A stretch of DNA of 64,000 bases from a virus (taxonomy: Duplodnaviria > Heunggongvirae > Uroviricota > Caudoviricetes): positions 1,134 through 65,133 of the IMG/VR virus record IMGVR_UViG_3300032220_001761; one strand, given 5' to 3'. A model generated the notes under the pieces. The model made no database searches and was not told where the DNA came from. It saw nothing but the letters and a program-made list of their open reading frames with translations. Shown piece after piece: positions 1,165 to 47,510 of this stretch; the first letter of the stretch is position 1; every line of letters starts with the position of its first letter. Both the position numbers and the translations under genes were made by a program.

Positions 1165-1737
1165 TTAGTAAAAGAAAATCGAAGATTTTTTAATTCTGGC
1201 TTTTGAAATCCTGTAATTTTTGCGGGAAATTCGATTATCGATTAAAAAATTAAAGAAATCTCCATTTTTAACATTCTTGACCATGGACCTTTCTGTGTTT
1301 TTACATAAAACACTAGTTATTTCCATTTGTCCTTTGTTGATATAATAGTGTGGAAAAAAGCTCTTAAAAAACGTCTTTGTGTTATCTATAGTATAAGCAC
1401 AGCTTTTATTGGTTATGATATTTCTGTTGATCTCGTCCATTAAAAAATCTCTATCTTCTAACACTACCCCAGGTGAAACCCAAAAACAATATGGGGTATA
1501 AACACCAAATTGCGGATTTTTTTCCTTAAAATCCAAACACTCTATTTTTATTGTTCTGTAAAAATCTGAAGACGCCTGGGCTGCATATTGCACGGATCCA
1601 TCGTTAGATCCATAATCTAAAATTATTACGCTAACTCCCCTTATCTTGGTCTGTAATAAAATGCTGTTTAAGGTCGATTTTAGTCCTTCTAGCGTGTTAT
1701 TTGAAGGAATCAATATGGTAACTAGGGTATTAATCAA
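1165..1737 (-). CDS. glycosyltransferase family 2 (GT-A fold)
   Basis: N-terminal VTILIPSNN...L.SIL.QT and DYGSNDGS, matching the GT2 nucleotide-sugar binding region (IPTYN...SL.NQT, DDGSTD). Confidence 0.6.
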   Translation of the reverse strand: MINTLVTILIPSNNTLEGLKSTLNSILLQTKIRGVSVIILDYGSNDGSVQYAAQASSDFYRTIKIECLDFKEKNPQFGVYTPYCFWVSPGVVLEDRDFLMDEINRNIITNKSCAYTIDNTKTFFKSFFPHYYINKGQMEITSVLCKNTERSMVKNVKNGDFFNFLIDNRISRKNYRISKARIKKSSIFFY

Positions 1738-4589: not shown

Positions 4590-5828
4590 TTAATTACTTA
4601 GCGGTGCTTTAATTGTTTCGTGTGATTGATAGTCACTTAGAATAAAATCATTAATAGAACTAGAAAATATCCCATCTCTAACATGAACTGTAGGTAAAGG
4701 GAAAGGCTCTCTTGTTTTCTTAGGTATTTTATACGAATCATAATACTCGCTTAATCCTCCTCCAAAAGGAACCATTTCAGAAACTGCTGTGCTATAAAAA
4801 TCTCCCATAGCAGTCTTTAACATATCATGTCTTTCTTCGTGAGTGTAGTTTCTGCCAATCTGCTCCTTTGCTTGTTCAATATGATTTGAATAAAGATGAA
4901 CATCACCCAAGTTACCAATCAATTCATCAGGAATCATATTAACCTCGTCTGCAATCATCATCAATAACAATCCGTAAGATGCAATGTTAAATGGTAAACC
5001 TAAGAATGTATCTACTGAACGTTGATTCCACATTAGAGAGATTGCTCGTTTAGGAACACCATAAGGTCTAAAAAACTCATCCATAGAAAATTCAACATCG
5101 AATTCTCTCATAGGTAAACCAATTTTAGGTCTATTTTTCTTCATCCAATCCAATCTTTCTTCATTACTCAACTCTCTTGTATAAACTTGAAATCCATAAT
5201 GACAAGGTGGAAGTACCATTTGGTCTAATTCTCCAACATTCCAAGCATTAACCATTAATCGTCTTGAGTCTGGATTTGTTTTAAGGTCGTTGATTAGATT
5301 TTGAATTTGGTCTATTGGTTTATAAACAATCTTTGGCCATTGTAATCTATCATCATTTGGCCATTCCACTAAATCACCAGATTTACACTTTTCTGGTGTA
5401 TTCCAACTTCTCCATTGCTTACCATAAATTGGACCTAATTCACCCCACTTCTTGGCAAACTCATCATCTATTTTGATCTTCTCAATGAATTCTTCTTGTG
5501 ACAATAACTTATCTTTTTCAGTTTCACCAATTACATCTAATGCTTTTTTTTCATAATTCTTATAAGCATCACCATCCCAAATATGACAATTATTATCAAC
5601 AAGGTATTTGATATTAGTATCGCCACGTAAGAACCAAATCAATTCAGTTACAACTGTCTTAAATGGCATCTTTTTGGTTGTAAGGAGTGGGAATCCTTCT
5701 GACATCTTATGACGGATTTGTCTTCCGAATACTGATAGTGTACCAGTCCCTGTTCTGTCTTTCTTTTCTACACCATTATCAAGGATATCTTGAAGGAGTG
5801 CTATGTATGTTTTATCTAGGTTGTTCAT
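4590..5828 (-). CDS. thyA: thymidylate synthase (ThyA) family enzyme with three large insertions (412 aa). Could be a dUMP methylase or a dUMP hydroxymethylase
   Basis: ThyA motifs present: ELGPIYGKQWRSW (dUMP-binding loop), MVLPPCHYGFQ (catalytic Cys), NQRSVDTFLGLPFNIASYGLL with Asn retained in PFNIAS (uracil specificity), and C-terminal HETIKAP. About 100 extra residues inserted relative to 264-320 aa ThyA. Confidence 0.75.
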   Translation of the reverse strand: MNNLDKTYIALLQDILDNGVEKKDRTGTGTLSVFGRQIRHKMSEGFPLLTTKKMPFKTVVTELIWFLRGDTNIKYLVDNNCHIWDGDAYKNYEKKALDVIGETEKDKLLSQEEFIEKIKIDDEFAKKWGELGPIYGKQWRSWNTPEKCKSGDLVEWPNDDRLQWPKIVYKPIDQIQNLINDLKTNPDSRRLMVNAWNVGELDQMVLPPCHYGFQVYTRELSNEERLDWMKKNRPKIGLPMREFDVEFSMDEFFRPYGVPKRAISLMWNQRSVDTFLGLPFNIASYGLLLMMIADEVNMIPDELIGNLGDVHLYSNHIEQAKEQIGRNYTHEERHDMLKTAMGDFYSTAVSEMVPFGGGLSEYYDSYKIPKKTREPFPLPTVHVRDGIFSSSINDFILSDYQSHETIKAPLSN

Positions 5829-9302: not shown

Positions 9303-10298
9303 TTATCTAGGACCAAGGAAGCCTAAATTACCGCCTCTTTTTATTTTAGGAGCCTTTTTCATATCTGTAAGATTTCCTAGAGCTTCTGAAAAATCTTTTC
9401 CCATTACAATAACAGATATGATTAATTCTTTAAGATGAGATAATGACATACCCTCGGTTGATTCTATCCAAACAGGCATATCTACATTACTAAGATCCTC
9501 TTCAGATAGCTTATTTTTTATGTATGCTTCTCTAATTTCTTTAGAAGGCATTTCAACTTGATATCTTCTATCAAATCTTGAAGGTCTGTTAGTTATTCTT
9601 TCTTGTAGTTTTTCCGGATAGTTAGTGGTTGCTATATAAACAACATTTTCGATTTGCTTAACTCCATCAAGGATATTTAAAAGCTTGGTTGTCGAATAAC
9701 GGTCTTCACCAGCAAGAGCATCAATATCCTCAAGAATAACAATTAAAGGTCTTTCTGGCTCGATCTTACGAATGGTTGGAATAAATTCAACGAAAGATTT
9801 AAAATCGTCTTCCTCCTTAATGTTTATTACAATTCCGTTCTCTCTATCGATTAATTTCTTTATACAAAGCTGTATTATCCCTGATTTTCCACACCCAGGT
9901 TCTCCCCATAAAAGTATACCTCTTTTGTGTACGAAGTTGTATTTTCTGTAAACATCTTTTTTGTCCCAAAATAGCTGTATATCGCTAAGGATACTTTGTA
10001 TCTCTGGTGATGGCAATTCGTAAAGTTCATCTACCTTCAATTTTTGTTTAACCATGACATGGGTCTGAAGGTTAGAATTCCATATGATCTCATAGAGACC
10101 AGATGGAACTTTCGGTATCGAAACGTAAGAAGGGGCAAATGTCTCATTTTGAAGTATAGACCATTCAGTTGGAGATTGGATATCTATGTTATCTAATCCT
10201 TCCTGGTCCATTATATAGTCGTCTATAATGTGGTTATTTCTCATATTTTTAATTAAGCGGTTTATACCTGACTGCCTCATCCCTCTCTTATTTTTCAT
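9303..10298 (-). CDS. AAA+ ATPase (classic AAA clade)
   Basis: Walker A GEPGCGKSG, Walker B IVILEDIDA, second region of homology NRPSRFDRR with arginine fingers. Confidence 0.8.
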   Translation of the reverse strand: MKNKRGMRQSGINRLIKNMRNNHIIDDYIMDQEGLDNIDIQSPTEWSILQNETFAPSYVSIPKVPSGLYEIIWNSNLQTHVMVKQKLKVDELYELPSPEIQSILSDIQLFWDKKDVYRKYNFVHKRGILLWGEPGCGKSGIIQLCIKKLIDRENGIVINIKEEDDFKSFVEFIPTIRKIEPERPLIVILEDIDALAGEDRYSTTKLLNILDGVKQIENVVYIATTNYPEKLQERITNRPSRFDRRYQVEMPSKEIREAYIKNKLSEEDLSNVDMPVWIESTEGMSLSHLKELIISVIVMGKDFSEALGNLTDMKKAPKIKRGGNLGFLGPR

Positions 10299-11397
10299 TC
10301 AATAGAAACTTGTTACTTATAGCCTTGAACGAGATTTTTCTGTTCTTGCTCCTCATAACAACTCCCTCACGATCGAAATGCTGATTAAGAATTGATTTTC
10401 CATCAGCATATTTTAAAATCTCTTCTATTGTAGAAGGGAGAATATAATTTGTTTCTATTTTTGGAACTGTTTCTAAGCCTAACACATTAATAGTTTCCTC
10501 GAATTCATTTAGACCTGCATACTCATGATTATCAATATTAAATACGTTGAAGAAGTATACTTTTTGTCCCTTAATTTTATAAGGATTTCCTTGTATTCCC
10601 TCTCCCACTAATTCACCTTGGAAAGATACATTGTACCCTAGAGATTTCATCTTATTTTCTAGATTCATTTCCCTTGCTACTCTCCAGAATGTATTTCCTT
10701 CTGTTTCCAAAAGTTCTAAATTTCTAGAGCAAACACCAAATACACCGTCATTATAGTAGAAGGTTGAAGATGATCCATCAAGTTTTTCAGAAACGTAAAA
10801 TCCATCAGAAAACTCTTCTCTCCATTTTTCTACCTCAGAGCTTAGATTTTGTATTCTCTCCTCGTCGGTTTTTGGTATGAAAGAAGGAAAAAGACCTTTA
10901 GCAAGTCCAGCTAATTCTGCTGGCATAGGTGGCTCGTATTTAACGATACCAAGTACTTCCGTAAGATCCTCTCCTTCTCTTACAGGAACCATGTCTTTAG
11001 GTGTTATCAAAACTCCGTTTGGCTCTATAGCAAAAAAAGTACCTTCTTCTAAAACCAATGCAGTTTCAGAGAGCCTATAATTTGCAGAGTTGATAGCATC
11101 CTTTAGTGGTATTATCAATCCTTGAGAAACCTGCCCTCTAAGTTTGATTGTCTTTAATCTGAATCCCTCAGACCCATCAGCCATTTTTTTATAGGATGAC
11201 TTACGTAGAAATTCGAACTGCTCCTTTATAGGAAGAAATGAATCAATCTCGCAATAAACTGCTAGATCTCCAACTTTATGTCCTACATTTTTTGCTACGA
11301 CCACTTTCCATCCGTTTACAATTGCTAACTCTATAGCATCTGCACCTTCGATAGGAAGAATATCTTTTATCTTTTGTATACTTGCTAGTTTTCTCAT
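10288..11397 (-). CDS. ATP-dependent RNA ligase (Rnl family, N-terminal OB-like domain plus nucleotidyltransferase domain)
   Basis: Ligase motif I EKLDGSS (KxDG), motif IV EGVV, motif V KISFKAISNKF. N-terminal ASIQKIKDILPIEGADAIELAIVNGWKVVVAK resembles the DraRnl/Pab1020-type N-domain. Confidence 0.7.
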   Translation of the reverse strand: MRKLASIQKIKDILPIEGADAIELAIVNGWKVVVAKNVGHKVGDLAVYCEIDSFLPIKEQFEFLRKSSYKKMADGSEGFRLKTIKLRGQVSQGLIIPLKDAINSANYRLSETALVLEEGTFFAIEPNGVLITPKDMVPVREGEDLTEVLGIVKYEPPMPAELAGLAKGLFPSFIPKTDEERIQNLSSEVEKWREEFSDGFYVSEKLDGSSSTFYYNDGVFGVCSRNLELLETEGNTFWRVAREMNLENKMKSLGYNVSFQGELVGEGIQGNPYKIKGQKVYFFNVFNIDNHEYAGLNEFEETINVLGLETVPKIETNYILPSTIEEILKYADGKSILNQHFDREGVVMRSKNRKISFKAISNKFLLNEK

Positions 11398-20258: not shown

Positions 20259-21449
20259 TTAATCTAATGAATAGAACTTCCTTCTTATATTGATCAACAT
20301 AGAGGAAGTTAAATCTGGATCAACAGTATCTGGTAGATCTGATTCATTAAATAAACGATCGATTTCTAGAATGTCATTTTCAGCACGATCGATTAAGCTT
20401 TGCAAATCAACTTCACCTCTACGAATGGCCAACAGTTCTTGAGCATTTTCTCTTCTAACTAAGATACCTTTACCCTGAGCAATTTCTTTAGCCATTTCAA
20501 GTAGCCTACGACAGTGCATCATGTTTTTACCATCGATCTTTTGACCGTGAGTTTCAACATCAACCCATCTTTGTAAGTTTCTTTTATCTAGCCATTCTTG
20601 GTATTCGTTGTAATCTTTACAATGTTGAGTGTATCCATCTTTATTGTAAATGATATTACAGATCGGTTTTTCTCCTTTAGGAATAGAAGATAAACGTAAT
20701 TGGTTCGATTCTGCTAGGTTAGATCCCTCCCCAGTTTTCACAAGACCTTTATATCCAAATCCGAAAGGTTCCCCCTTTATATTTTGAGAATCCTTTTGGA
20801 ATCTACGTAATTCTCCTGGGATAGATTCACTAAAACAACAATAAGCAATACTATCAAAGAAAACTGCATATAGGTCTCTGGCGTTAGGAACATTAGAAAC
20901 CCCACAGAATTTTTCTTCAAATCCTTCCTTCTCGTTCCATATCTTCCATGGGATTGATTTTTCACCTTCAATAACATAGCAGAAATCAAGAACATCCTTT
21001 CTGGTAACCTTTTCTTTTTCCCAGTTTTGCTTCTTATCCTGTCCTTTTGCCTTCTTGATCTGTTGGATAGCATATCCACCAAACGAATTAGAGCACTTTT
21101 TAGTGATAAATTGGTCCCGTAGCTCAATTATTTCCCCTATCAATGGGTGTTTGTATAGAATACAGTCTTCTGGTGTGTTTAAGAGCTCTAAAATAGTTGG
21201 ATTATTAGAAGCAACTAATTCTAGAAATCTTTTGACCTCATAAAAAACTGTGTCGTTCTTGTCGTCATTGATCTGCTCTTTATAATGGAAGCCTAAGATG
21301 TCGTCTATCTTTTGTATATAAACACCAGCATAGTCTATATCAGAGGTAGGTAAAGCAGTACCATAAGCCTGTGATCCTCTTTTAACAATAAGTAAGGGCT
21401 GAGCCCCAGGGGACTTGCTTTCTATCAAGTCCAAAAATTCTTGTAACAT
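20259..21449 (-). CDS. polymerase-beta-superfamily nucleotidyltransferase (minimal NTase N-domain plus helical C-domain)
   Basis: NTase signature KRGSQAYGTALPTSDIDYAGVY (GS...SDxD). Confidence 0.5.
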   Translation of the reverse strand: MLQEFLDLIESKSPGAQPLLIVKRGSQAYGTALPTSDIDYAGVYIQKIDDILGFHYKEQINDDKNDTVFYEVKRFLELVASNNPTILELLNTPEDCILYKHPLIGEIIELRDQFITKKCSNSFGGYAIQQIKKAKGQDKKQNWEKEKVTRKDVLDFCYVIEGEKSIPWKIWNEKEGFEEKFCGVSNVPNARDLYAVFFDSIAYCCFSESIPGELRRFQKDSQNIKGEPFGFGYKGLVKTGEGSNLAESNQLRLSSIPKGEKPICNIIYNKDGYTQHCKDYNEYQEWLDKRNLQRWVDVETHGQKIDGKNMMHCRRLLEMAKEIAQGKGILVRRENAQELLAIRRGEVDLQSLIDRAENDILEIDRLFNESDLPDTVDPDLTSSMLINIRRKFYSLD

Positions 21450-21856
21450 TATAGCAATTTTAAATGATTAGTAACAGGATCTATTTCATCCGCCCAATTT
21501 GGTCCAATGGCAATACATGTTTTTGTAGGTACACCACTAAATTCAGTAAGACCCGCATCAGTGATTATAGATGCAATAAGTCCCGCATCCTTAGCCTTTT
21601 CGTATATCTCTATTAATTCAGATTCGGAATCTACTGAAACACAAACCTTAGTAAATAACCCATTGATCCAAGACTCCATTGGGGTTCCACTTTCAAGTAT
21701 GAGTGTTTTTTCTTGAATTTCTTTTCTGTGCGACAATATAACCATTCGATCTAGTACTGCTGCCATTGATGCGTGTGCACCTTGAGCTACCATCTTGCCT
21801 TTTCTCATATTCAGGTCTTTGCGCATGACAATAACCTGCTTTGCTATTCTTTCCAT
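21449..21856 (-). CDS. peptidyl-tRNA hydrolase, PTH2 family
   Basis: QVIVMRKDLNMRKGKMVAQGAHAS, ITDAGLTEF...TKTCIAIGP, VTNHLKLL, all matching PTH2 conserved blocks. Confidence 0.75.
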   Translation of the reverse strand: MERIAKQVIVMRKDLNMRKGKMVAQGAHASMAAVLDRMVILSHRKEIQEKTLILESGTPMESWINGLFTKVCVSVDSESELIEIYEKAKDAGLIASIITDAGLTEFSGVPTKTCIAIGPNWADEIDPVTNHLKLL

Positions 21857-25724: not shown

Positions 25725-26244
25725 ACAACAAATCCTTGGAGAAGTATTTACACCTGTTTTTATGACAGAGGATGAATTCGAAAAAGGATACAAAGAATCT
25801 ATATTTTGGACAGATAAGGATTTCATGTCAGAGTATAGAAAGCACATAGCTGCAATGTCTCATGTATCTGAATGTGCGAAGATATACATTCTTAAAAATT
25901 GGGCGAAGGTCAAGGATTGGAGCGAATTAGATGTGGTTATAGTACATGGTCCTTCTGGAAAAATGACGGAATACTATAATTATGTTCCTAGAGAAATTAA
26001 CAACGACCATAAAATAAAGGAAGGGGCTTATTCAAATCTGTTAAAAGAAATTGATGAGAAAAACAAGCTAAAGCATAATCCCATAAGGGAATTTAACGAG
26101 GTTATCCTTGACCCCACAGACGGTGATTTTTCAGTTACAGTAAATGGCAACGAAGAGCACTGGTGGATACAAGACGAAGCTGTTATAATAATAGCAGATT
26201 ATATTGAAGAACAATTAAAAAAACAAGATAATGAGGAAGCTTAA
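25663..26244 (+). CDS. hypothetical protein (start probably the Met at 25702)
   Basis: 193-aa ORF with lysine-rich N-terminus. Confidence 0.45.
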   Translation: MSISKKQKKKLKSMKKKEEYKQQILGEVFTPVFMTEDEFEKGYKESIFWTDKDFMSEYRKHIAAMSHVSECAKIYILKNWAKVKDWSELDVVIVHGPSGKMTEYYNYVPREINNDHKIKEGAYSNLLKEIDEKNKLKHNPIREFNEVILDPTDGDFSVTVNGNEEHWWIQDEAVIIIADYIEEQLKKQDNEEA

Positions 26245-27127
26245 CTTAGCAAATCCAGAAAAAAGTGGGATAGAATTTCAAATTTCTAAATTCCCAGATG
26301 GTCAGCAATCAGTGACTATAAATTCTCCGTTCTTAGCATCAACAGAACCTATAACAATAATCTCTAGAATGAACTCGTTCCGAGATCTTGAGCTTATCAT
26401 CTGTGCTAATGTCGCATTAAAAGAAATAGGAACTAAAGAAATCCATCTCTTTGTACCTTATTTTTTAGGAGCAAGATCAGATCGTAAATTCGTAGACGGA
26501 GGATCTAACTACCTAAAAGATGTCATCTGTCCTATCATCAACATGCAGAATTTCGAAACGGTTACGGTTTTAGATCCTCACTCTGATGTTTTAGAAGCTT
26601 GTCTTAAAAATTTCAGAAAAGAAACCAATATTGAATTTGTAAGAAAAGCTCTTACAAAGATCGATAATACAAATGATGCTAGAGAAAAAATGGTTATCAT
26701 TTCACCTGATGCAGGAGCAATGAAAAAGATCTATCAGGTTGCAGAAGCATTCTCGTTAGACAAAATTGTTATCGCTGCTAAACACAGGGATTTGAAATCT
26801 GGAAAGATTACTCACACGGAAGTACCAGATCTCAATAAATATTCACCAGATTCAAACTTTGTCATTATAGATGACATCTGCGATGGAGGTAGAACATTTA
26901 CTGAAATATCTAAAGTAATCAAATCTCATGTCTGGCCGAGGGACGAATATTTCAGAGGTAAGATCTATTTGATTATTACCCATGGTATTTTCTCTGCTGG
27001 TCTTTTAGATTTGAGTAGAAACTTCGACAATGTATTTACAACAAACAGTGTAAGGGATCTTGAGGTCGAGGATTTTTCAGATTACACTGTATCAAAAGAT
27101 TTTGTAATCCAATTTGAAGTTGTCTAA
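26231..27127 (+). CDS. ribose-phosphate pyrophosphokinase (PRPP synthetase) family protein. Candidate ADP-ribose pyrophosphokinase (Adps) of an NAD+ reconstitution pathway
   Basis: Prs-like blocks: FPDGQ (FsDGE), LELIICANVALKEIGTKEIHLFVPYFLGARSDRK (PYfgYaRQDRK), ISPDAGAMKK, and PRPP-binding loop VIIDDICDGGRT. Confidence 0.7.
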   Translation: MRKLNLANPEKSGIEFQISKFPDGQQSVTINSPFLASTEPITIISRMNSFRDLELIICANVALKEIGTKEIHLFVPYFLGARSDRKFVDGGSNYLKDVICPIINMQNFETVTVLDPHSDVLEACLKNFRKETNIEFVRKALTKIDNTNDAREKMVIISPDAGAMKKIYQVAEAFSLDKIVIAAKHRDLKSGKITHTEVPDLNKYSPDSNFVIIDDICDGGRTFTEISKVIKSHVWPRDEYFRGKIYLIITHGIFSAGLLDLSRNFDNVFTTNSVRDLEVEDFSDYTVSKDFVIQFEVV

Positions 27128-27129
27128 TT

Positions 27130-27498
27130 ATGAAAACAGAATTTAAAATCTCATCTATAGTCGGTATAAAAACCATTAATGAGAGAGAAAATACGTCATT
27201 TCAATGGTTTGATGAAATTCCAAGTAAATCTACATTTTTTGGAATGTTCAAATCTGAAAAAGTATCAGAAGGATTTGGAGAGATTGGGTACAATACGAGG
27301 TATACGGATCTGGACCTAATAAAAAGAGGTTATAACGTAAGTGGAAAGAAGGTATTTTACAGACCATATGCTACAGTCTATTTGGAACACGAGTACGAGG
27401 TACAAAAAACATTTAGATCCAATGAAGAAATGTCAGCATGGGTAAACTACCTAAAGACTGAAAATGGTGGAAATTTTGAAATTGTTAATCACAAATGA
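27130..27498 (+). CDS. hypothetical protein
   Basis: 122-aa ORF between the Prs-like and macro genes. 4-bp overlap downstream. Confidence 0.45.
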   Translation: MKTEFKISSIVGIKTINERENTSFQWFDEIPSKSTFFGMFKSEKVSEGFGEIGYNTRYTDLDLIKRGYNVSGKKVFYRPYATVYLEHEYEVQKTFRSNEEMSAWVNYLKTENGGNFEIVNHK

Positions 27499-28019
27499 GA
27501 TACGAAGAAATACAGGGGGATCTAATCAAATTAGCCAAAGAAGCTAAATTTGATGTTATAGCTCACGGATGCAATTGTCATTCACAAATGGGAGCTGGTT
27601 TAGCACCTCAAATGGCTAAAGCTTTTGGATGTGATAAATTCGAAATGGAATCTTGGGGATCCACTATTGAAAAACTTGGATGTATAGATTTTGAAACATT
27701 GGTATTAGGAAAAAATTCAATTTGGAGTTTAGCTGATGCAGACAACAAAGAAGGTGATCCTGAACTAGCAGTAGTTAATGCCTACACCCAATATAACTAT
27801 GGAAGAAATCACTCGGATGGGGATTTAAAACCTATAGATTATGAAGCACTTACCCTTTGCATGAGAAAAATGAATAAAATTTTTACAGGCAAACATATAG
27901 GTCTTCCACAAATAGGTGCAGGATTAGCAGGAGGAAATTGGAACAGAATTAAAAACATTATTCAAACAGAACTAGTTGACTGCAAAGTCACTGTAGTCAT
28001 TTACAACAAATTAGTATGA
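27495..28019 (+). CDS. macro domain protein (TARG1/OARD1-like ADP-ribose processing)
   Basis: VIAHGCNCHSQMGAGLA and GLPQIGAGLAGG match the OARD1-type macro ADP-ribose pocket (hGCNC..mGaGiA ... G.GlaGG). Confidence 0.65.
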   Translation: MRYEEIQGDLIKLAKEAKFDVIAHGCNCHSQMGAGLAPQMAKAFGCDKFEMESWGSTIEKLGCIDFETLVLGKNSIWSLADADNKEGDPELAVVNAYTQYNYGRNHSDGDLKPIDYEALTLCMRKMNKIFTGKHIGLPQIGAGLAGGNWNRIKNIIQTELVDCKVTVVIYNKLV

Positions 28020-28471
28020 CACTAAAAGACAAAATTCAAAAAGAATTCGTTGAAGCTATGAAAGCTAAAAACGATGTTGCTAAATCTGCCCTTAGCGGAT
28101 TAAAGGCAAAAATTACAGAGGCTGAAAAGGCTAACGGAAACGTATCCCTTGGAGATCCAGAGGTTGTTAAAGTCGTAAGCTCCGCAATCAAACAAAGAAA
28201 GCAATCTGTTGATGCTTTTGAGCAAGCTGGAAGAACTGATCTAGCCAATAAAGAAAAAGGCGAGATTATAGTATTGGAAACATTCCTTCCTAAGCAAATG
28301 ACAGAGGACGAGATTGAAAAGGCCGTAAGAGAAATCATTGCAAATATGCCAGAAGTTGCTACCAATGCTAATGCTCTTCAAGGAAAAACAATGGGTGCTT
28401 TCAACAAAGCTTATTCAGGTCAAGCAGATTCTAAAGTTGTAATGGAGATCATTAAAAAAGTAACAACATGA
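28016..28471 (+). CDS. GatB/YqeY domain protein
   Basis: DKIQKEFVEAMKAKNDVAKSALSGLKAKI...QRKQSVDAFEQAGRTDLANKEKGEIIVLETFLP...ANALQGKTMGAFNKAYSGQADSKVV follows the YqeY/GatB C-terminal domain pattern. Confidence 0.65.
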   Translation: MTLKDKIQKEFVEAMKAKNDVAKSALSGLKAKITEAEKANGNVSLGDPEVVKVVSSAIKQRKQSVDAFEQAGRTDLANKEKGEIIVLETFLPKQMTEDEIEKAVREIIANMPEVATNANALQGKTMGAFNKAYSGQADSKVVMEIIKKVTT

Positions 28472-28692
28472 AACCTATAACAGCTAAAGAAGCTAGAGAA
28501 ATAACTGATGCTTATTCCGAAGCGGGAATGGACGATATTCTAAAAAATATCAGAGAAGGTGCTGCTGGTGGAAATGACCATTTAACAATGGACTACGTTT
28601 CAAAAGGTCAAAAAAAGGTTTTGGAATCTCTTGGATATGGTGTTAATTGGCATGACATGGGGAGAGATGGGTATTGGAAAATTTCATGGTAA
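28468..28692 (+). CDS. hypothetical small protein
   Basis: 74-aa ORF, 4-bp overlap. Confidence 0.4.
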   Translation: MKPITAKEAREITDAYSEAGMDDILKNIREGAAGGNDHLTMDYVSKGQKKVLESLGYGVNWHDMGRDGYWKISW

Positions 28693-28736
28693 AAACAAGA
28701 AAATATTAATCAATACTATTTACACTGGAGTGGATA

Positions 28737-28925
28737 ATGGATAAAAAATTAGAATCTGAGTACATCTATTGGGTAAAGAGGCTAAGGCTCGAAGACCTTC
28801 ATACAGAAATGCAAAATATAGAGTGGGGGATTCAAAATATAAAATCCGAAAAAACTTTAGAAAATGTCCTTGTCAAAAAAGGAATACTCGAAAAAGAATA
28901 CGAAACAAGAAATAACAAGAAATAA
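28737..28925 (+). CDS. hypothetical small protein
   Basis: 62-aa ORF. Confidence 0.3.
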   Translation: MDKKLESEYIYWVKRLRLEDLHTEMQNIEWGIQNIKSEKTLENVLVKKGILEKEYETRNNKK

Positions 28926-28926
28926 A

Positions 28927-29418
28927 ATGGAAAAAAATAGCAAATACTATTTCTTCTATAAAACAAGGCATCCATTTTCCAATTGGCATCCATGTTCATT
29001 TGAAGACAAAGAAGGAAATCAATACACTTGCTCAGAGCAATACATGATGGCTCAGAAAGCTTTACTCTTTGGAGATAAAGAAATATTTGAAGAAATCATG
29101 GACGAACCGGATCCAAAATTTCAAAAAGAATTGGGAAGGAAGGTTAAAGGGTTCGATTCTAAGATATGGAACGATAATGCGAAAAGAATAGTTTATGAAG
29201 GATGTAAGCTTAAATTTGAACAAAATGAAAAGTTACTAAAAGTATTACTTGATACAAAAGGAACTTTTCTAGTAGAGGCTTCTCCATATGATAGAATCTG
29301 GGGTATAGGTCTTGGAGAAGACGATCCAGCAATACACGATCCTGCTAATTGGAATGGATTGAATTGGCTAGGTGAAGTTCTTACCGACTTAAGAGATGAC
29401 ATAATTAATAATCAATAA
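28927..29418 (+). CDS. NADAR-domain (YbiA-like) N-glycosidase / ADP-ribosyl glycohydrolase
   Basis: FSNWHPCSF...YTCSEQYMMAQKALLFGD...LGRKVKGFD...KFEQNEKLLKVLLDTKGTFLVEASPYDRIWGIGL matches the NADAR/YbiA family. Start set to Met at 28927, immediately after the preceding stop. Confidence 0.65.
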   Translation: MEKNSKYYFFYKTRHPFSNWHPCSFEDKEGNQYTCSEQYMMAQKALLFGDKEIFEEIMDEPDPKFQKELGRKVKGFDSKIWNDNAKRIVYEGCKLKFEQNEKLLKVLLDTKGTFLVEASPYDRIWGIGLGEDDPAIHDPANWNGLNWLGEVLTDLRDDIINNQ

Positions 29419-29430
29419 AAACAAAACAAA

Positions 29431-30993
29431 ATGTTCAAACCAAACAGTTTATTCTACAGCGACGGCTATAAGATTGGCCACAAAAAAATGCTTGCTAAAG
29501 GAACTTCTCGTCTTTATGGTACATGGATTCCTAGAAGCATTAAGCATGCTCCTAAAGGTGTTAAGAAAATCCTTTCATTCGGACAACAACTTGCAATGAA
29601 ATGGCTTCATGATGAATTTTCAGAAAACTTTTTTAAACTATCCAAAGAAGATGCAATGCAATTCGGAAATGATATGTCATTGTATCTTGGTATGGATTAT
29701 GATGCTTCGCACTTTGAAGCTCTTCATGATCTAGGATATCTTCCAATTCGTGTAAAATCTTTACCAGAGGGGATCGAGACTTTACCAAATATCCCTCATA
29801 TGACATTCATTAACACTCTTGATGGATTTGCTTGGCTTACTCTTTATCTTGAAACTATCATTTCTTCACTTTCTTGGAAGCCTTCAACTTCGGCAACCAT
29901 TGCATTACAATACAAAAGAAACGTGGTTGAATGGGTAATGAAAACGGATCCAGCAAATTCTTTCCTCATTCCTTTTCTTTGCCATGATTTTTCTGCTAGG
30001 GGATTAAGTCCTTGGGATATGTTATCAAGCGGTCTAGGACACGCTACATCATTTCTAGGATCTGATACAATCATTTGTATCCCAGGAGCACGTTACTTCT
30101 ATAACGAGCCTAATGACCAAGTTGCAATCTACTCTGTAAATGCTTCTGAACACTCCGTATCGACAACTAAGATTTTTACAGTTGGTGAACAACAAATGAT
30201 AGCGGATTGGTTGGTAGATTTTCCTAAAGGTATCTTATCAATTGTATCTGATACTTTTGACCTTTGGAAGTTAATCACCGAGTACTTACCAGCAAATAAA
30301 GAAGCTATCATGGCTCGTGACGGTAAGTTAGTTATTCGTCCCGATTCTGGTGATCCTGTTGATATTATTTGTGGAATCAATACAAGGAATGATCCTGATA
30401 ATCGTTACGTTAAATTAGCTGGTACTCCTGAATACAAAGGAGTAATTGAATTACTTTGGGACATCTTCGGTGGCACAACCAATGAACAGGGTTACAAAGT
30501 ACTAGATCCTCATATCGGAGCAATCTATGGGGATTCAATTAATTTGGATCGTCAAATTCAAATCTATGAAAGATTGGAAGCTAAAGGTTTTGCTGCAACT
30601 AACATTGTTTTAGGAGTAGGATCTTTTACGTACCAAATGAACACTAGAGATACTTTTGGTTTTGCAGCTAAAGGAGCTTGGTTCGAGGTTAAAGAAGAGA
30701 TTGGTCAAACAGTTGATACATTACAGCCAATTTACAAATACACTGGATTTGATATTTTTAAGGATCCTGTAACAGATGATGGTACTAAAAAATCTCTAAA
30801 AGGTATGGTTGCTGTATTTGAAAATGACGGAGACCATTATGTTAAGATTCAATGTACACAGGAAGAAGAGGAAACAGGATTACTACAAGTTATCTATGAA
30901 AATGGTAATTTTTATAACCAATCTTCATTAACTGAGATTAGAGCAAAAATCAATGAGCTTTGTAACGAAAAAGTTCTTGAAACAGAAATTTAA
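29431..30993 (+). CDS. nicotinamide phosphoribosyltransferase (NAMPT/NadV) family protein. Candidate nicotinamide-ADPR transferase (Namat)
   Basis: N-terminal SDGYKIGHKKM...GTSRLYGTWIPRS (TDSYK..H...YP.T...ys.R) and overall 520-aa NAMPT-like length. Confidence 0.8.
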   Translation: MFKPNSLFYSDGYKIGHKKMLAKGTSRLYGTWIPRSIKHAPKGVKKILSFGQQLAMKWLHDEFSENFFKLSKEDAMQFGNDMSLYLGMDYDASHFEALHDLGYLPIRVKSLPEGIETLPNIPHMTFINTLDGFAWLTLYLETIISSLSWKPSTSATIALQYKRNVVEWVMKTDPANSFLIPFLCHDFSARGLSPWDMLSSGLGHATSFLGSDTIICIPGARYFYNEPNDQVAIYSVNASEHSVSTTKIFTVGEQQMIADWLVDFPKGILSIVSDTFDLWKLITEYLPANKEAIMARDGKLVIRPDSGDPVDIICGINTRNDPDNRYVKLAGTPEYKGVIELLWDIFGGTTNEQGYKVLDPHIGAIYGDSINLDRQIQIYERLEAKGFAATNIVLGVGSFTYQMNTRDTFGFAAKGAWFEVKEEIGQTVDTLQPIYKYTGFDIFKDPVTDDGTKKSLKGMVAVFENDGDHYVKIQCTQEEEETGLLQVIYENGNFYNQSSLTEIRAKINELCNEKVLETEI

Positions 30994-32938: not shown

Positions 32939-33415
32939 ATGAAATTACAAGTCCTTAAACCAACTGACGGTGACTCTGTAAAAAACAGAGTCACCGTTTT
33001 TCTTGCAGGATCTATTGAGATGGGTGCTGCAGAAGATTGGCAAACAAAATTAGCCAACGATTTACAAGACATCCCGGTAACACTTTTTAACCCAAGAAGA
33101 GATTCTTGGGATTCTTCATGGGAGCAAAGAATGTCTAATCCAGAGTTCAGATACCAGGTAAACTGGGAGATGAACATGCTAGAATCTTCCGATATAATAT
33201 TTCTTTATCTTTCTCCGGAAACTAAATCCCCTATTTCACTACATGAATTAGGACTTCATGCTGACAGTGGAAAAATGATAGTTTGTTGTCCCGATGGATT
33301 TTGGAGAAAGGGAAACGTTGAAATAACTTGTGCTAGACACGGTATTCCTTTATACAACGATATAAACCATGCAAAGGATGCTTTAATCACGCTAATAAGC
33401 TCTAAAACAATATAA
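32939..33415 (+). CDS. nucleoside 2-deoxyribosyltransferase-like / DNPH1-like N-glycoside hydrolase fold protein
   Basis: VFLAGSIE (iYlAGP-type start), ...SLHELGLHADSGKMIV (catalytic-Glu ELG motif of the NDT/DNPH1 family). 3 bp after the flotillin stop. Confidence 0.5.
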   Translation: MKLQVLKPTDGDSVKNRVTVFLAGSIEMGAAEDWQTKLANDLQDIPVTLFNPRRDSWDSSWEQRMSNPEFRYQVNWEMNMLESSDIIFLYLSPETKSPISLHELGLHADSGKMIVCCPDGFWRKGNVEITCARHGIPLYNDINHAKDALITLISSKTI

Positions 33416-33416
33416 A

Positions 33417-34343
33417 ATGAATGATTTAAAATTTTTGAATACTGCCTTCGTAATAAAAAAGGACAGTAAAACAGGTGGGAACGGAACTATTACCTATATG
33501 GATTTAGAAATGTCACCATCTTCCGACAGGGTTGAAACCTGGGGACTTACAGAAGCAGGGGAAGCCCCACACGAACTTAGAATGGTTACTAGATCTAAAT
33601 TTTTTGAGCTTCAAAGATTTCAGGTAAAGTCGACATACCCTTCAGAACTTATATCTGATCTTAATTATTACCACGGAGTAGATGGTAATTCTATGATTGA
33701 TGAGGCATTGAATAATGAGATGGATCAATCTCTCATTAAAAATCTATACAAAAAATACAGTGAGATTGGAGAAATAACAAGGGTATCCCAATATACAAAA
33801 TGGCAAAAGTTCATTCTTAAAATCTCCCCTAAAATGATTTTTACCAATTATATTAAAGAGGATAGAAATGGATCTGAAATGCTCTATAATAAGATTGTGG
33901 TAGAAGCTAATAAGATAGCATCTAGAACAAGAATAAAACCAGGAGATTTTATTGTATGTGGTTCACTAGTAGGGTCTTTATTACAGGATCACCCAGGATT
34001 TTCATTCGAGTCATTAAATAACTCGATCTCTATGAAAACACCTAGCATAGACTATGTTGGAAACATTGCAGGAAGAATAGCTGTTTATGTTAATGCAAAT
34101 GAAAAGTTTAGTGATGGATGGGTAATTATAGGCAGAAAAACAAACACACATGAAACTGGTGTCTATTTTATTTATGAGGACAGAGAAAAAATTCAACTAG
34201 CGGATATAGATCCATCAAAAAATAAATTTGGTATAACACAAAGAGCTGCAATAGTTGATACCCACGGGGCAGAAAAATCATTTTCAAAAATACACTTCAC
34301 AGTGGGTAAAAAACCATTCTGGAAAAAACTTTTTAATATTTAA
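33417..34343 (+). CDS. hypothetical protein
   Basis: 308-aa ORF, 1 bp after the upstream stop. Confidence 0.5.
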   Translation: MNDLKFLNTAFVIKKDSKTGGNGTITYMDLEMSPSSDRVETWGLTEAGEAPHELRMVTRSKFFELQRFQVKSTYPSELISDLNYYHGVDGNSMIDEALNNEMDQSLIKNLYKKYSEIGEITRVSQYTKWQKFILKISPKMIFTNYIKEDRNGSEMLYNKIVVEANKIASRTRIKPGDFIVCGSLVGSLLQDHPGFSFESLNNSISMKTPSIDYVGNIAGRIAVYVNANEKFSDGWVIIGRKTNTHETGVYFIYEDREKIQLADIDPSKNKFGITQRAAIVDTHGAEKSFSKIHFTVGKKPFWKKLFNI

Positions 34344-34351
34344 AAAAATCC

Positions 34352-35845
34352 ATGGCTATCTTAGGAGATATTAAATATATCGACATGGATATTAATGATC
34401 CATTAGAATTTAAAGAATTCCCAGGGAGAATAGTTTTAGTTACTTCTTTTTTAGATATAGGGAGAGGAAACTGGAAGGATTATTCAAGAAATGCAGATAC
34501 CTATATAAGATCTTTTTTGAATTATCTAGATTATGAGTATGAGATGATAATATTCATAGACGAGAGATACCATAGTGAAATAGTCGGGTATTACAATGAA
34601 TCTAAGTATAAAAATAAAACGATAATCCCAATTAATAAGGATTGGTGCAATGAAAATTTAGATTCGTGGAAAAAGTTAAATTCCTATAATAACATAATGT
34701 CATCAGATTACTATAAAGGAATTGTAGGGCATAGGATAACATCAGGGTCTCCAGAAAATATATCACCAGAGTATAACATTATAAATCATTCAAAGATAGA
34801 TTTTTTAAAGTATTGTATAGATAACAGATTATCAGAATCTGATTTTTTCTGCTGGACTGATTTTGGATACTTCAATGCAATACTCCAAAATAATAATGAT
34901 TACTATCCTAAATCTATTTTAAGCAACAAGAAATTTAATTACGACAAGATAAGTTTTTTTCTTAGAAACAAAATAGAGGAGGTAGATGCAGATACTATCT
35001 ACACTCTAATAAATTCACCAGAGAAATTTACTGGATCATTTTGGGGTGGAAATACAAAAAATATAAATGCTCTTCATAGTTTATATCATGAATCTTTAGA
35101 TGAAATGATGGAGCAAAATATAGCTGACGACGATCAGCATGTATACCTAAAATGTTTTTTAAAAAATCCAGGAATTTTCCAACTGTACTTATCTAATAAA
35201 GAATGGCCAAAAGCTCTTAAATACATGGAGGACAAAAAATATTATACAGGGAAGAAATTTTTTGATTGCGGAACTCACTTTTTTGAAGGATTTGAGAAAT
35301 TCGCTAAAATGTATAATATTGATGATAAATGGAAATGCTATTGTTTCGAAGCTAATCCTATCACTTATTCGATGTCAATAAAAAAGATGAAAGAATTAAT
35401 AGGTGTGGGGCACAATATAGATTATTTCAATTTAGCAGTTACTAATAAAAACACAGAAATCAAAATAAACTGTGCATTAGATTCAGGATCTTTTACAAAT
35501 CAAGGATCAAATATATTAGATTCCCCGCCAGATAGAGACATAGTATATGGGGGTGTTTTTAATTATAACAGCGATTCTTTTTATGTTAGAGGATTAATAT
35601 TCTCAGACTTTCTAAAACAAACTGTAAATGAAGGAGATTTTGTTGTAATTAAAATGGACATAGAGGGATCTGAATTTGATGTTATGGATTCACTAATTGA
35701 AACTGGAACATTCAAACTTATAAGCCAGATTTATGTAGAATATCACGAAAGATTTTTTGAAGATGTTGAAGCTTATAGTGAGAAGAAAAAATCATACGAA
35801 AGAATATTCAAAGAACACAATATAGCAATAAAAGAATGGGAATAG
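34352..35845 (+). CDS. two-domain protein: N-terminal putative glycan-modifying domain plus C-terminal FkbM-family methyltransferase domain
   Basis: C-terminal FkbM blocks FDCGTHFFEGF...YCFEANPITY...NLAV...GDFVVIKMDIEGSEFDVM...IYVEYHE. Confidence 0.5.
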   Translation: MAILGDIKYIDMDINDPLEFKEFPGRIVLVTSFLDIGRGNWKDYSRNADTYIRSFLNYLDYEYEMIIFIDERYHSEIVGYYNESKYKNKTIIPINKDWCNENLDSWKKLNSYNNIMSSDYYKGIVGHRITSGSPENISPEYNIINHSKIDFLKYCIDNRLSESDFFCWTDFGYFNAILQNNNDYYPKSILSNKKFNYDKISFFLRNKIEEVDADTIYTLINSPEKFTGSFWGGNTKNINALHSLYHESLDEMMEQNIADDDQHVYLKCFLKNPGIFQLYLSNKEWPKALKYMEDKKYYTGKKFFDCGTHFFEGFEKFAKMYNIDDKWKCYCFEANPITYSMSIKKMKELIGVGHNIDYFNLAVTNKNTEIKINCALDSGSFTNQGSNILDSPPDRDIVYGGVFNYNSDSFYVRGLIFSDFLKQTVNEGDFVVIKMDIEGSEFDVMDSLIETGTFKLISQIYVEYHERFFEDVEAYSEKKKSYERIFKEHNIAIKEWE

Positions 35846-36420
35846 GAGAGCTTCACAGTCTAGGGATAAGATATGGAACTGACAAGGCAACATATCACGA
35901 TTATCTTAATTTTTACGAAAATAATATAGGTCATTTAAAAAACGAAAGGATTAATATTATGGAAATAGGATTTCTGCACGGGAATTCTATAAAAATGTGG
36001 CTAGATTACTTTACAAATGCTAGAATATATTGCTTAGATATTATAGATTGCTCTTTTACTCACGAAAGATTTCACTATATTAAGATATCACAGGATAATC
36101 CTATTTTAGATAATATTTTTCCAGATTCTTTTTTCGACTTAATTATAGATGATGGTAGTCATATGACATCACATCAGATAAAATCTTTAGAGATATTATG
36201 GAAAAAAGTAAAATCTCCAGGATTTTACATATTAGAGGATTTACATACATCATTTTCTAAGGAGTATGTTGATACTGAAATAACAGCATATGAAATAATA
36301 AATGGGGAGAAATCTATACAATCTATTTCTCCTATCATGGAAGAAACATCTTCTATTGAAATATTTAGAAAAAATCACGGGGTTGGTTCTAATAGTTTAA
36401 CCTCAATCTTAAAAAAATAA
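35836..36420 (+). CDS. SAM-dependent methyltransferase (CmcI/TylF-like)
   Basis: YGTDKATYHDYLNFY N-terminal motif and MEIGFLHGNSIKMW...ARIYCLDI SAM-binding region. Confidence 0.45.
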   Translation: MGIGELHSLGIRYGTDKATYHDYLNFYENNIGHLKNERINIMEIGFLHGNSIKMWLDYFTNARIYCLDIIDCSFTHERFHYIKISQDNPILDNIFPDSFFDLIIDDGSHMTSHQIKSLEILWKKVKSPGFYILEDLHTSFSKEYVDTEITAYEIINGEKSIQSISPIMEETSSIEIFRKNHGVGSNSLTSILKK

Positions 36421-36426
36421 AAAATT

Positions 36427-37008
36427 ATGGCGGTTTCCAGAAAAACATTTAGAATTTGCGAAAATTATTTCGTCTCTGGTAAAAAAATAGCTGAATTGGG
36501 ATCACAATTTGTTGTCGGTGAAGAATGGGGATCTTATGGTCCTCCATATTTTAAAGATGTTTTCAAACATCTTGACATAACATCATTTGATTACAATGGA
36601 GAGAATGGAGCAATAAAAGTAGATCTTTCCATTCCTATAGGCGAAGAATACAAAAATCAGTATGACATAGTCACTAATTTTGGAACAACAGAACATGTTT
36701 CAAATCAGCACACATGTTGGAAAAATATTTTTGATATGCTAAAACCTGATGGCTTAGTCATTAGCGAGATACCAAGAAAAAATAATTGGCCAAACCATTG
36801 TAAATACTATTATGACGAAGTTAGTTTTAATTCACTGTCGGATGATTTTATAATAATGGAAATCTCCAATATATTCTATGATGGACAAGGAGATTTAATC
36901 TATACGGTTTTAAGAAAAAAACATGATGGTGAATTTAAAACTACCACATACAATCTAATGAATTCTGTACAGGTTGATCAATATTTTGTAGACCCACAAG
37001 GACATTAA
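36427..37008 (+). CDS. hypothetical protein (possibly another methyltransferase-fold protein)
   Basis: 193-aa ORF, KKIAELGSQ.. weakly SAM-motif-like. Confidence 0.4.
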   Translation: MAVSRKTFRICENYFVSGKKIAELGSQFVVGEEWGSYGPPYFKDVFKHLDITSFDYNGENGAIKVDLSIPIGEEYKNQYDIVTNFGTTEHVSNQHTCWKNIFDMLKPDGLVISEIPRKNNWPNHCKYYYDEVSFNSLSDDFIIMEISNIFYDGQGDLIYTVLRKKHDGEFKTTTYNLMNSVQVDQYFVDPQGH

Positions 37009-37026
37009 AAATAAAAAAATAAAAAA

Positions 37027-40715: not shown

Positions 40716-41214
40716 GTCTTAAGGGTGATAAAAATTTTCTCAATGCAACTATTTTTTCGGCTTCCTGTGGATCTGATGAAAAATTCTCGACCCAAGAATC
40801 ATAAGGGGGGATAAAATCACCGCCTCCGGCCTTGGCGTAGTCTGAAACGATCTTTTCGTAATCTGTCCAGTTTTCCTTATCCCAAACTCTATCTTCTACC
40901 AAGAAAACAACAGCTGTTAATTGATCTCCTAGATCTGGCTCATAGAATAAAGCGACCTTCTTTTCACCAATCAGCATTCTTAAAAATGAAGCATGTTGAT
41001 TAAGAGTACCAGGAGAAATTGGATTTGTACTTGTTGTGCCTCCATTTAAGATGATAAAGGTCTTATCCTCTTTAGCCCATCTTTGGTATTCAGGTGTTTC
41101 TCCATAGAGTAACCCATACTCAACTACTGCATGTCCAAATTGTATCCCTTGTTGGATAGGACTGATGTTATATGGGACTAACCCATACATTCTATATTTT
41201 CTTTCTGTATTCAT
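40708..41214 (-). CDS. hypothetical protein, possibly a divergent PTH2-fold protein
   Basis: YGLVPYNISPIQQGIQFGHAVVEY and ALFYEPDLGDQLTAVVF loosely parallel the PTH2 blocks (DL.M..GK.AAQ..HA and DAGRTQI..GS.TV.AIGP). Confidence 0.35.
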   Translation of the reverse strand: MNTERKYRMYGLVPYNISPIQQGIQFGHAVVEYGLLYGETPEYQRWAKEDKTFIILNGGTTSTNPISPGTLNQHASFLRMLIGEKKVALFYEPDLGDQLTAVVFLVEDRVWDKENWTDYEKIVSDYAKAGGGDFIPPYDSWVENFSSDPQEAEKIVALRKFLSPLRLA

Positions 41215-45690: not shown

Positions 45691-45865
45691 GACAAATGAA
45701 GAGCACCTCGAAGAGATTCTACACCATGCCCATCAGTTAGGAATAGTGAAGGAGTTAGAAAGTAGGATACCGGCAAATGTAAAATACCCCGATCTTTCAA
45801 CAGTTTATCTCCGCGAGATGCTCAAGATTGTAAAGGAAAAGAATCTTACCTATTCATCAGATTAA
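45689..45865 (+). CDS. hypothetical small protein (58 aa, below ORF-track cutoff)
   Basis: ATG at 45689 to TAA at 45863 in an otherwise empty gap. Charged/helical composition. Confidence 0.3.
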   Translation: MTNEEHLEEILHHAHQLGIVKELESRIPANVKYPDLSTVYLREMLKIVKEKNLTYSSD

Positions 45866-47454: not shown

Positions 47455-47469
47455 TTTCTTTTTTAAAAA

Positions 47470-47499
47470 GAAGGACTATCCAGTTAAGAATAGTCCTTC
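47470..47499. terminator. 10-bp perfect hairpin GAAGGACTAT/ATAGTCCTTC between the binding-protein gene and the permease gene. Possible internal terminator/attenuator
   Basis: Read directly. Flanked by T-runs on both strands (TTTTTAAAAAAG on the minus strand). Confidence 0.45.
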
Positions 47500-47510
47500 A
47501 GATTATTTTA

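Follow-up and report, generated by a model that had tools for sequence, protein, structure and literature searches.

The DNA analysed here, hereafter the window, is a stretch of 64,000 nucleotides (nt) covering positions 1,134 to 65,133 of the virus record IMGVR_UViG_3300032220_001761, and its source is a large T4-like aquatic phage of 33% G+C, probably with a Bacteroidota host. An open reading frame (ORF) that begins with ATG and extends, stop codon included, over 4590..5828 of the minus strand encodes a protein of 412 amino acids (aa) and is a genuine gene of the ThyA family, thyA, whose product is very probably a thymidylate synthase (TS) enlarged by four inserted segments. The protein matches the Pfam family PF00303 (Thymidylat_synt) with E=1.2e-91 and 307 bits against a cut-off of 24.3, surpasses the cut-off of the NCBIfam equivalog TIGR03284 (313.8 over 108.35 bits), falls slightly below that of NF002496 (319.6 of 325 bits) and matches PHROG 160, 'thymidylate synthase', at E=7e-106. 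Solved structures are matched at E=4e-69 (Enterococcus faecalis, 3uwl) and approximately 1e-65 (Escherichia coli), and identity to E. coli ThyA is 52% over aligned columns; the E. coli reference sequence (264 aa) agrees with the Protein Data Bank (PDB) alignments. An AlphaFold2 (AF2) monomer model, with a predicted local distance difference test (pLDDT) score of 81.6 and a predicted template-modelling (TM) score of 0.80, retrieves the TS structures of Lactobacillus casei, E. faecalis and E. coli by Foldseek with E of about 1e-29 and target-normalised TM-scores of 0.83-0.91. The gene family is already labelled thymidylate synthase in the Joint Genome Institute (JGI) and GenBank collections.

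The catalytic Cys209-His210 pair (E. coli C146-H147) lies within an LPPCH motif at 5199..5204 (minus strand, as for all features of this gene) and is invariant in 88 family members. The phosphate-binding Arg residues are retained, with E. coli R21, R126/R127 and R166 corresponding to R25, R189/R190 and R270, as are S167 (S271) and the residues E58 (E62), W80 (W84), Y94 (Y135), Q165 (Q269), D169 (D273), H207 (H311) and Y209 (Y313), each of these mapped residues being at least 90% conserved across 88 homologs. Asn281, encoded at 4986..4988, aligns with E. coli N177, which has a role in uracil specificity (PMC8670742). The C-terminal IKAPLSN at 4593..4613 aligns with E. coli IKAPVAI, with the same length following KAP, and represents a TS-type active-site closure segment. 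A first-pass annotation, made from the letters of the window alone, had listed ThyA catalytic blocks that are all found in these alignments, namely PPCH (C209/H210), PFNIAS with its retained Asn (N281) and the C-terminal IKAPLSN.

The same annotation had hedged between a TS and a dUMP hydroxymethylase, an enzyme that would make 5-hydroxymethyldeoxyuridine (5-hmdU) monophosphate, or 5-hmdUMP, as the entry to thymidine hypermodification. Hydroxymethylases do exist within the ThyA family, and SPO1 gp29 and T4 gp42 are, like the window enzyme, phage-encoded members of the PF00303 superfamily; gp29 is also expanded (383 aa), Asn281 is compatible with a uracil substrate, the position of E. coli W83 is unconserved in the window ThyA, and the window encodes several glycosyltransferases and methyltransferases and an NDT/DNPH1-like protein. 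However, the alignments to gp29 and gp42 that the annotation had proposed reveal no specific relationship to either protein: by BLASTP, gp29 is matched at E=9e-5 over 63 aa (24% identity) and gp42 (246 aa) at E=9e-4 over a short stretch, and identities to the two enzymes are 22-25%, compared to 52% for E. coli ThyA. Both gp29 and gp42 are without the TS C-terminal closure segment that the window enzyme has, and gp29 is additionally without H147, W80 and the R21 loop (DRTGTGT), all of which the window enzyme keeps. Although gp29 is likewise longer than ThyA, its extra segments occupy other positions. Searches by tblastn with gp29 recovered gp29-like enzymes in ViI-like Salmonella phages and in Pseudomonas siphophages of about 62 kb, a set to which the window ThyA does not belong; these ViI-like and M6/PaMx11-like lineages are ones that we take to be 5-hmdU-modifying.

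Gene content is also informative, given that dUMP hydroxymethylases co-occur with genes for dTTP/dTMP-depleting enzymes, dNMP kinase, 5-HMUDK or aGPT-Pplase (PMC8989533). Pfam scans of the approximately 70 ORFs of the 64-kb window revealed no 5-HMUDK-like kinase, aGPT-Pplase, dTMPase, dCMP deaminase, dUTPase or dihydrofolate reductase, and the search for a 5-hmdU pathway that the annotation had suggested thus came back empty; nor do 5-hmdU pathway genes adjoin thyA in four related contigs. Liquid chromatography with ultraviolet detection and tandem mass spectrometry of the DNA of Flavobacterium phage immuto_2-6A, one of the closest cultured relatives, revealed dA, dC and dT in canonical form; dG alone is substituted, by fdPreQ1 (PMC10516641), and there is no additional pyrimidine peak. 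The arrangement that the annotation had named as speaking against altered chemistry is, as far as sequence and this relative can tell, the one observed, with insertions at loop or turn positions, all tested methyl-transfer residues intact and canonical dT in the closest cultured phage of like architecture. Because of the intact residues, the score above the TIGR03284 cut-off, the marginal similarity to gp29 and gp42, the lack of 5-hmdU genes in the window and the dT of immuto, the window enzyme is judged with considerable assurance to be a dTMP-forming TS, and a dUMP hydroxymethylase is considered very unlikely. The first half of the original hedge is therefore upheld by the intact residues and the equivalog cut-off, and the second half is abandoned on the marginal gp29/gp42 similarity and the pathway genes missing from the window. 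A dCMP hydroxymethylase of the gp42 type was rejected as well, as Asn281 is kept instead of Asp and the gp42 match reaches only E=9e-4; the gp42 residue at the N177 position is presumably Asp179. The gene is hence properly annotated as a thymidylate synthase and is not evidence of T-hypermodified DNA, and length alone offers no ground for calling long ThyA homologs hydroxymethylases.

Compared to E. coli ThyA, the window protein carries 148 extra residues, distributed over four insert sites with four residues more at the N-terminus and three fewer in the C-terminal region; the three insertions of about 100 residues counted in the first-pass annotation are accurate relative to the 315-316 aa type of L. 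casei and E. faecalis. Insert 1 (residues 85-121, 37 aa; 5466..5576) is a helical 'small-domain' insert that aligns to that of E. faecalis 3uwl and L. casei, with helices modelled at pLDDT of about 86-96 and an N-terminal part that is variable across family alignments. The insert 2 region (residues 143-171; 5316..5402) adds 22 aa between WRSW and IDQI, is modelled at pLDDT 57-62 and ranges from 7 to 91 aa in length across homologs. It contains a 24-nt tandem duplication at 5332-5379 (minus strand), the 75% identical copies of which encode DLVEWPN and DRLQWPK, and is therefore still growing through local duplication. Cellular ThyAs vary at the positions of inserts 1 and 2 too.

Insert 3, the site-3 cassette, comprises residues 217-262 (TRELSNEERLDWMKKNRPKIGLPMREFDVEFSMDEFFRPYGVPKRA; 5043..5180), with 41 extra aa; its place is taken in E. 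coli by VADGK (V154-K158), the β-hairpin turn that links the catalytic-Cys strand to the strand bearing Q165/R166/S167. AF2 predicts a helix at 222-232, a loop, and a second helix at 249-256. Insert 4, the site-4 cassette, comprises residues 325-372 (GRNYTHEERHDMLKTAMGDFYSTAVSEMVPFGGGLSEYYDSYKIPKKT; 4713..4856) and is of the 'PFGGGLSE' type, as recognized by alignments and a cassette hidden Markov model (HMM). Its 47 extra aa take the place of S221, where helix K (..EQI) is followed by REP (E. coli L220-S221|R222), and AF2 predicts three short helices (330-341, 344-355 and 360-365) with pLDDT mostly 72-91. The strand carrying C209 would leave the active site toward the site-3 turn and the return strand would lead back to Q269/R270/S271, so that by strand topology the hairpin tip would lie approximately nine residues, or 25-30 Å, from the catalytic centre; site 4 would come after helix K, whose course is away from Y313. 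Such a topology would place both cassettes on the surface, distal from the active site, with the chemistry unchanged. The borders of the cassettes resemble a helix N-capping box together with hydrophobic anchors and a Pro return, which suggests a structural 'socket' with a solvent-exposed and replaceable interior.

Inserts 3 and 4 are, by their sequences, two copies of one kind of helical cassette of about 45 residues. They share the borders RE[LY][ST]x[ED]ER ... [IV]Px[RK][AT], and among 120 homologs (64-77% identical, 400-430 aa) both inserts start with x-R-[EK]-[LY]-[ST]-x-[ED]-E-R and end with [IV]-P-x-[RKH]-[AT]. The likeness is not confined to the borders. An HMM built from the usual site-4 cassette (..ERxxLLKxAMG..Y..AV.E..PFGGGLSEYY..YKIP..) matches the site-3 insert of immuto over its whole length with E=1e-20, and the site-4 cassette of one homolog (P0105) is 86-89% identical in amino acids to the site-3 cassettes of two others (P0072 and P0102; E of about 3e-23). 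Between P0105 and P0102, the swapped cassettes are 88% identical in amino acids and 84% in nucleotides, compared to 70% nucleotide identity for the whole genes. An independent sample of viral ThyAs was drawn with a degenerate DNA pattern of the site-3 N-border and with no selection for similarity to the window protein. Once the borders are removed, 122 of the 131 site-4 interiors significantly match an interior that occupies site 3 of some other protein, and the cassette types common to the two slots number at least five (PFGGGLSE; TWEEQVQWVMKN; EERKxIYE..WLESKL; NNYETGxEY; LDLAxKxY..DFGIP). The site-4 interior of the window protein itself matches a site-3 interior (L063) at 45% identity and E=1e-6.

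The two slots differ in how their contents vary. Compared in pairs, 87 close homologs have median identities of 91% for the core, 66% for the site-4 interiors and 17% for the site-3 interiors, the last of which fall into 46 unrelated types of differing length (approximately 25-60 aa). The PFGGGLSE site-4 cassette, at its median of 66%, displays several invariant residues and is therefore under constraint. Of 165 gene pairs with 90-95% identity over the 240 nt of core DNA that flank site 3, 83% bear unrelated site-3 interiors, and pairs with flanks more than 95% identical have essentially identical ones; this step-like pattern indicates wholesale replacement and not drift in place.

These patterns bear on the simplest alternative, that sites 3 and 4 are neutral, permissive loops that collect indels, with the likeness of the borders arising by structural convergence on a helix N-cap and a Pro return. 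The lack of conserved sequence or length among site-3 interiors would be expected of such loops, inserts 1 and 2 vary freely too, and the [ST]xxE of the border is a generic helix-capping box. Against this stand the full-length homology of interiors between the slots (E=1e-20; 88% identity), which is not a product of convergence, the constraint on the PFGGGLSE cassette, the step-like replacement that is unlike gradual drift, the ordered helices predicted by AF2, and the fact that virtually every member of a large viral clade, as well as distant backbones, retains a cassette. Neutral accumulation is on balance unlikely.

Exchange between the slots and between genes is further indicated by the reassortment of site-3 types with site-4 subtypes, for which motif-based typing gives six violations of the four-gamete test; coarse single-linkage clustering, in which the site-4 types were merged, gives none. 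In the core segments next to the slots (aa 76-90, 167-226 and 253-267), synonymous codon identity is 0.83-0.90, as compared to 0.55-0.62 in segments equally conserved as protein, and the 91% nucleotide identity between the window and immuto is confined to the central thyA region. The raised synonymous identity fits recombination through conserved junctions. Site 3 alone is occupied in 36 of 50 parsed viral genes, and some genes without a site-4 insert (L020, L063 and L099) have the PFGGGLSE cassette itself at site 3. Site 4 has the native form KEQ[IL][STG]|REP and the occupied form KEQIG-RE[LY][ST]...IPxx[TS]-REP. The most economical history begins with an old and widespread slot at the hairpin tip, from which several independent copies of site-3 cassettes entered a second slot after helix K. 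Under such a history, site 3 would be the primary slot, its interior swapped wholesale through recombination at highly conserved junction DNA, and site 4 would be a secondary slot loaded several independent times from site-3 cassettes, one of which, PFGGGLSE, would have become fixed at site 4 in the clade of the window.

The junction DNA might alternatively owe its behaviour to homing endonucleases that target thyA, such that site 3 is a recombination hot spot produced by double-strand breaks and co-conversion next to the conserved DNA coding for Gln-Arg-Ser (QRS). In Erwinia phage RisingSun (L138, 298-2523), a GIY-YIG endonuclease gene divides the cassette-bearing thyA at R166|S167, a point that is downstream of the 3' edge of the cassette by exactly 24 nt. 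The intron of T4 td (L139) lies 21 nt further downstream, and a CAACG motif occurs 23-25 nt upstream of where it is inserted, a position that we take to be the I-TevI cutting site; the unusually high synonymous identity of the junctions would also follow. Nevertheless, none of the 118 evaluable viral cassette-bearing genes is interrupted near site 3, a search of the intervening 1 kb of the RisingSun locus with Rfam detects no group I intron, and site 4 is left unexplained, which together render this origin quite unlikely. Two other sources of inserted or variable sequence were rejected. An intein is too large for segments of about 45 aa, and no Pfam domain besides Thymidylat_synt was matched. 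A diversity-generating retroelement does not agree with interiors that differ in length and are unrelated, and neither a matching repeat in the gene region nor a reverse transcriptase domain among the scanned ORFs was found.

Small metagenomic ORFs have also been recovered by a search with a profile of the cassette alone. P0128 (107 aa) and P0138 (113 aa) consist of a whole PFGGGLSE cassette and short ThyA remnants only (for example ..YNHIENEIRPYTHEER.. and ..DDKFNNKWG..), and together with P0122 and P0123, which came from the same search, they may be decaying genes or free-standing cassette proteins. In P0140 (222 aa), a tandem unit of about 29 aa, KRxELLKAALGDxxYxQLMSDxGTAGGT, weakly resembles the cassette core ERxELLKQAMGExxYxKAVDELxPFGGG (43 bits over four repeats). 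The top hit of the profile, P0121 (5641 aa, 18 stretches), is an artefact of 5-7 bits each, summed over near-identical repeats. In some ThyA variants, ..IEPLSN comes immediately after the cassette, with about 35 C-terminal residues deleted, and these too may be decaying. The closure motif itself varies within the family, as ..HPKIYFPLSN, ..IKMPLSN or ..INFPLSN replace ..IKAPLSN in many cassette-bearing viral ThyAs (L072, L077, L086, L101, L109, L123, L132 and L134).

Short in-frame peptide-coding inserts at surface positions of conserved enzymes are known from the Rickettsia palindromic elements (RPEs) and insertions like miniature inverted-repeat transposable elements (MITEs), and the cassettes could be imagined as a selfish, in-frame mobile mini-element of this kind for which ThyA is one tolerated target. 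The same types do occur at two sites and in very different backbones (E. coli-like SPN3US and RisingSun, and the aquatic clade), swapped cassette DNA is more alike than the genes that host it, the RE...RE brackets of site 4 resemble a duplicated target, and the small non-ThyA ORFs P0128 and P0138 carry a cassette. On the other hand, a six-frame HMM and regular-expression scan of the 64-kb window found no further copy, a DNA repeat search found no terminal inverted repeats or long direct repeats at the borders, and the interiors are mutually unrelated, with no single element sequence among them. Run against 1.84 billion representative proteins, the cassette-only profile gave just 21 hits, of which those that convince are ThyAs, ThyA fragments or small ORFs with ThyA remnants. 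Without copies outside thyA and without inverted repeats, an origin from a general mobile element is therefore very unlikely. The comparison with RPEs is one of analogy only, as the cassettes lack inverted repeats and copies outside thyA, and share among themselves only their borders and no element sequence.

The distribution of the cassettes is equally distinctive. The site-3 border pattern has seven matches in 185,579 bacterial and archaeal species, each represented by a single genome (596 Gb in all), all seven being true cassette-bearing ThyAs on contigs of metagenome-assembled genomes and none in an isolate genome, compared to at least 120 matches in IMG/VR viral contigs. The cassette architecture is therefore essentially viral.

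Taken together, the window thyA is best understood as encoding a competent, classical ThyA that carries exchangeable helical cassettes of about 45 residues in two slots and whose chemistry is untouched by them, a reading to which a probability of about 0.8 is assigned. The enzyme, predicted from its sequence to be active, would convert dUMP and 5,10-methylene-tetrahydrofolate to dTMP and dihydrofolate and so supply dTMP for an AT-rich phage genome. The cassettes are presumably an interaction or stability module, and would act at the surface in stabilizing the protein or in protein-protein contacts.

Several points weigh against this interpretation. E. coli W83, which contacts both folate and the C-terminus, is unconserved in the window protein and aligns to D87 (in the manner of L. 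casei) or F124 (by MAFFT); human TS is also without the Trp at this position (N112). The AF2 model has pLDDT below 50 at residues 193-210, the fully conserved catalytic loop NAWNVGELDQMVLPPCH, while the core elsewhere is confident; this loop may be ordered only in the dimer. The surface placement of the cassettes, distal from the active site, is read from strand topology, and the model is that of a monomer. The contig is about 190 kb long, of which the window covers 64 kb, and pathway genes could sit in the remaining 126 kb or so. The dT evidence stems from a relative, whose site-3 and site-4 cassettes are unlike those of the window protein. Sequence alone cannot rigorously exclude capture of water over hydride transfer. 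Finally, the synonymous identity of the junctions could in part be due to constraint at the nucleotide level instead.

A bolder extension would regard viral ThyA as a scaffold with plug-in slots under diversifying or host-specific selection, the turnover of which records an arms race. The cassettes might dock ThyA to phage or host partners, such as a complex for dNTP synthesis or replication, or they might evade a host factor that recognizes or inhibits phage thymidylate synthase, and new cassettes would have moved between slots and between phages through recombination at conserved junctions. This extension is tentative and rather doubtful at present. If the cassettes do mediate interaction or immune evasion, they would constitute a new case of conflict-driven diversification in a core metabolic enzyme, and would also mark natural permissive sites for engineered insertions in ThyA.

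The remainder of the window encodes a varied set of functions. The DNPH1/NDT-like ORF mentioned in the first-pass annotation is real (32939..33415, plus strand, 158 aa; PF15891, E=6e-37), and no link between it and thyA was found in the window; it lies directly upstream of a 308-aa ORF (33417-34343) with a partial match to the Gp23 major capsid protein. A cluster of genes for sugar and methyl transfer at 34352-38631 (plus strand) encodes an HtrL_YibB and FkbM methyltransferase fusion (497 aa), a small S-adenosylmethionine-dependent methyltransferase and, from the GT17 family, a glycosyltransferase of 534 aa; two glycosyltransferases of the GT2 type are encoded elsewhere, at 61278-61973 and 1165-1737 (both minus strand). 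The targets of these transferases could be the virion, the cell surface or, conceivably, DNA. A two-component pair at 54394-56947 (minus strand) comprises a 709-aa GAF-PAS-PAS histidine kinase (HATPase_c) and a 143-aa response-regulator receiver protein, and a PAS protein is found near thyA in two related contigs (L007 and L008). At 45857-49286 (minus strand), a 591-aa OmpA-domain protein is encoded alongside an ABC transporter ATPase and a binding-protein-dependent permease component. A block for NAD and nucleotide salvage at 26231-30993 (plus strand) specifies phosphoribosyltransferase-domain, YqeY-like, NADAR-domain (E=6e-52) and NAPRTase-family (520 aa) proteins. An RNA repair and tRNA toolkit is spread across 2068-2484, 9303-11397, 20259-21856 and 41211-41948, and includes a cREC_REC domain, an AAA ATPase, an RNA ligase with the PHA02142 OB-fold, an RlaP nucleotidyltransferase, the peptidyl-tRNA hydrolase PTH2 and a PolyA_pol/CCA-adding head domain.

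Among characterized enzymes, the best matches to the window protein are the ThyAs of L. casei, E. faecalis and Staphylococcus aureus (1lca/4tms, 3uwl and 4dq1; E=4e-69, TM-scores of 0.83-0.90), which have all catalytic residues and an insert at the position of insert 1 in common with it. The solved ThyAs that were aligned have no insert at site 3 or site 4, and the window protein is longer by about 96 aa. No description of a two-slot cassette architecture was found in the literature, with incomplete coverage of subscription journals, and the exchangeable two-slot architecture of viral ThyAs may thus be previously undescribed; the TS function itself is not new. The interest of the architecture lies in its being virus-specific, in an enzyme that ranks with the most thoroughly studied in biochemistry: a hypervariable and recombinationally exchanged helical module occupies the tip of the catalytic hairpin, and one large aquatic phage clade has it duplicated into a second slot.

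Simpler versions of this architecture are recognizable in jumbo phages. The ThyA of LR756502, an uncultured phage of 642 kb, is 368 aa long and has inserts 1-3 but no insert 4; the comparison with E. coli phage Goslar covers a ThyA match at a similar length. SPN3US and RisingSun combine an E. coli-like backbone with the site-3 cassette as their only insert of the slot type. In LR756502, SPN3US and RisingSun alike, the site-3 cassette lies at the hairpin tip and has borders equal or similar to those of the window protein. In gp229 of Salmonella phage SPN3US (338 aa), which has neither insert 1 nor a site-4 cassette, the site-3 cassette borders TRELSIDERLDW...IPRRI lie at the hairpin tip used in the window protein, and the border TRELSIDERLDWFEKN...IPRRI is nearly that of the window protein.

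The closest cultured relatives are the immuto myophages, each record of which has a single ThyA-family locus. In vB_FspM_immuto, a Flavobacterium phage, the ThyA (QQO91966.1, 423 aa), annotated as a thymidylate synthase, is 61% identical to the window protein over its full length and has inserts at all four sites. Nucleotide identity between the two genes rises to 96% in segments of the catalytic core, whereas the remaining immuto genome is without nucleotide similarity to the window. At site 3 the immuto enzyme has the PFGGGLSE cassette and at site 4 another, degenerate one; the arrangement in the window protein is the opposite. With the module present in SPN3US, RisingSun and immuto, all cultured and genetically tractable phages, its role is directly testable.

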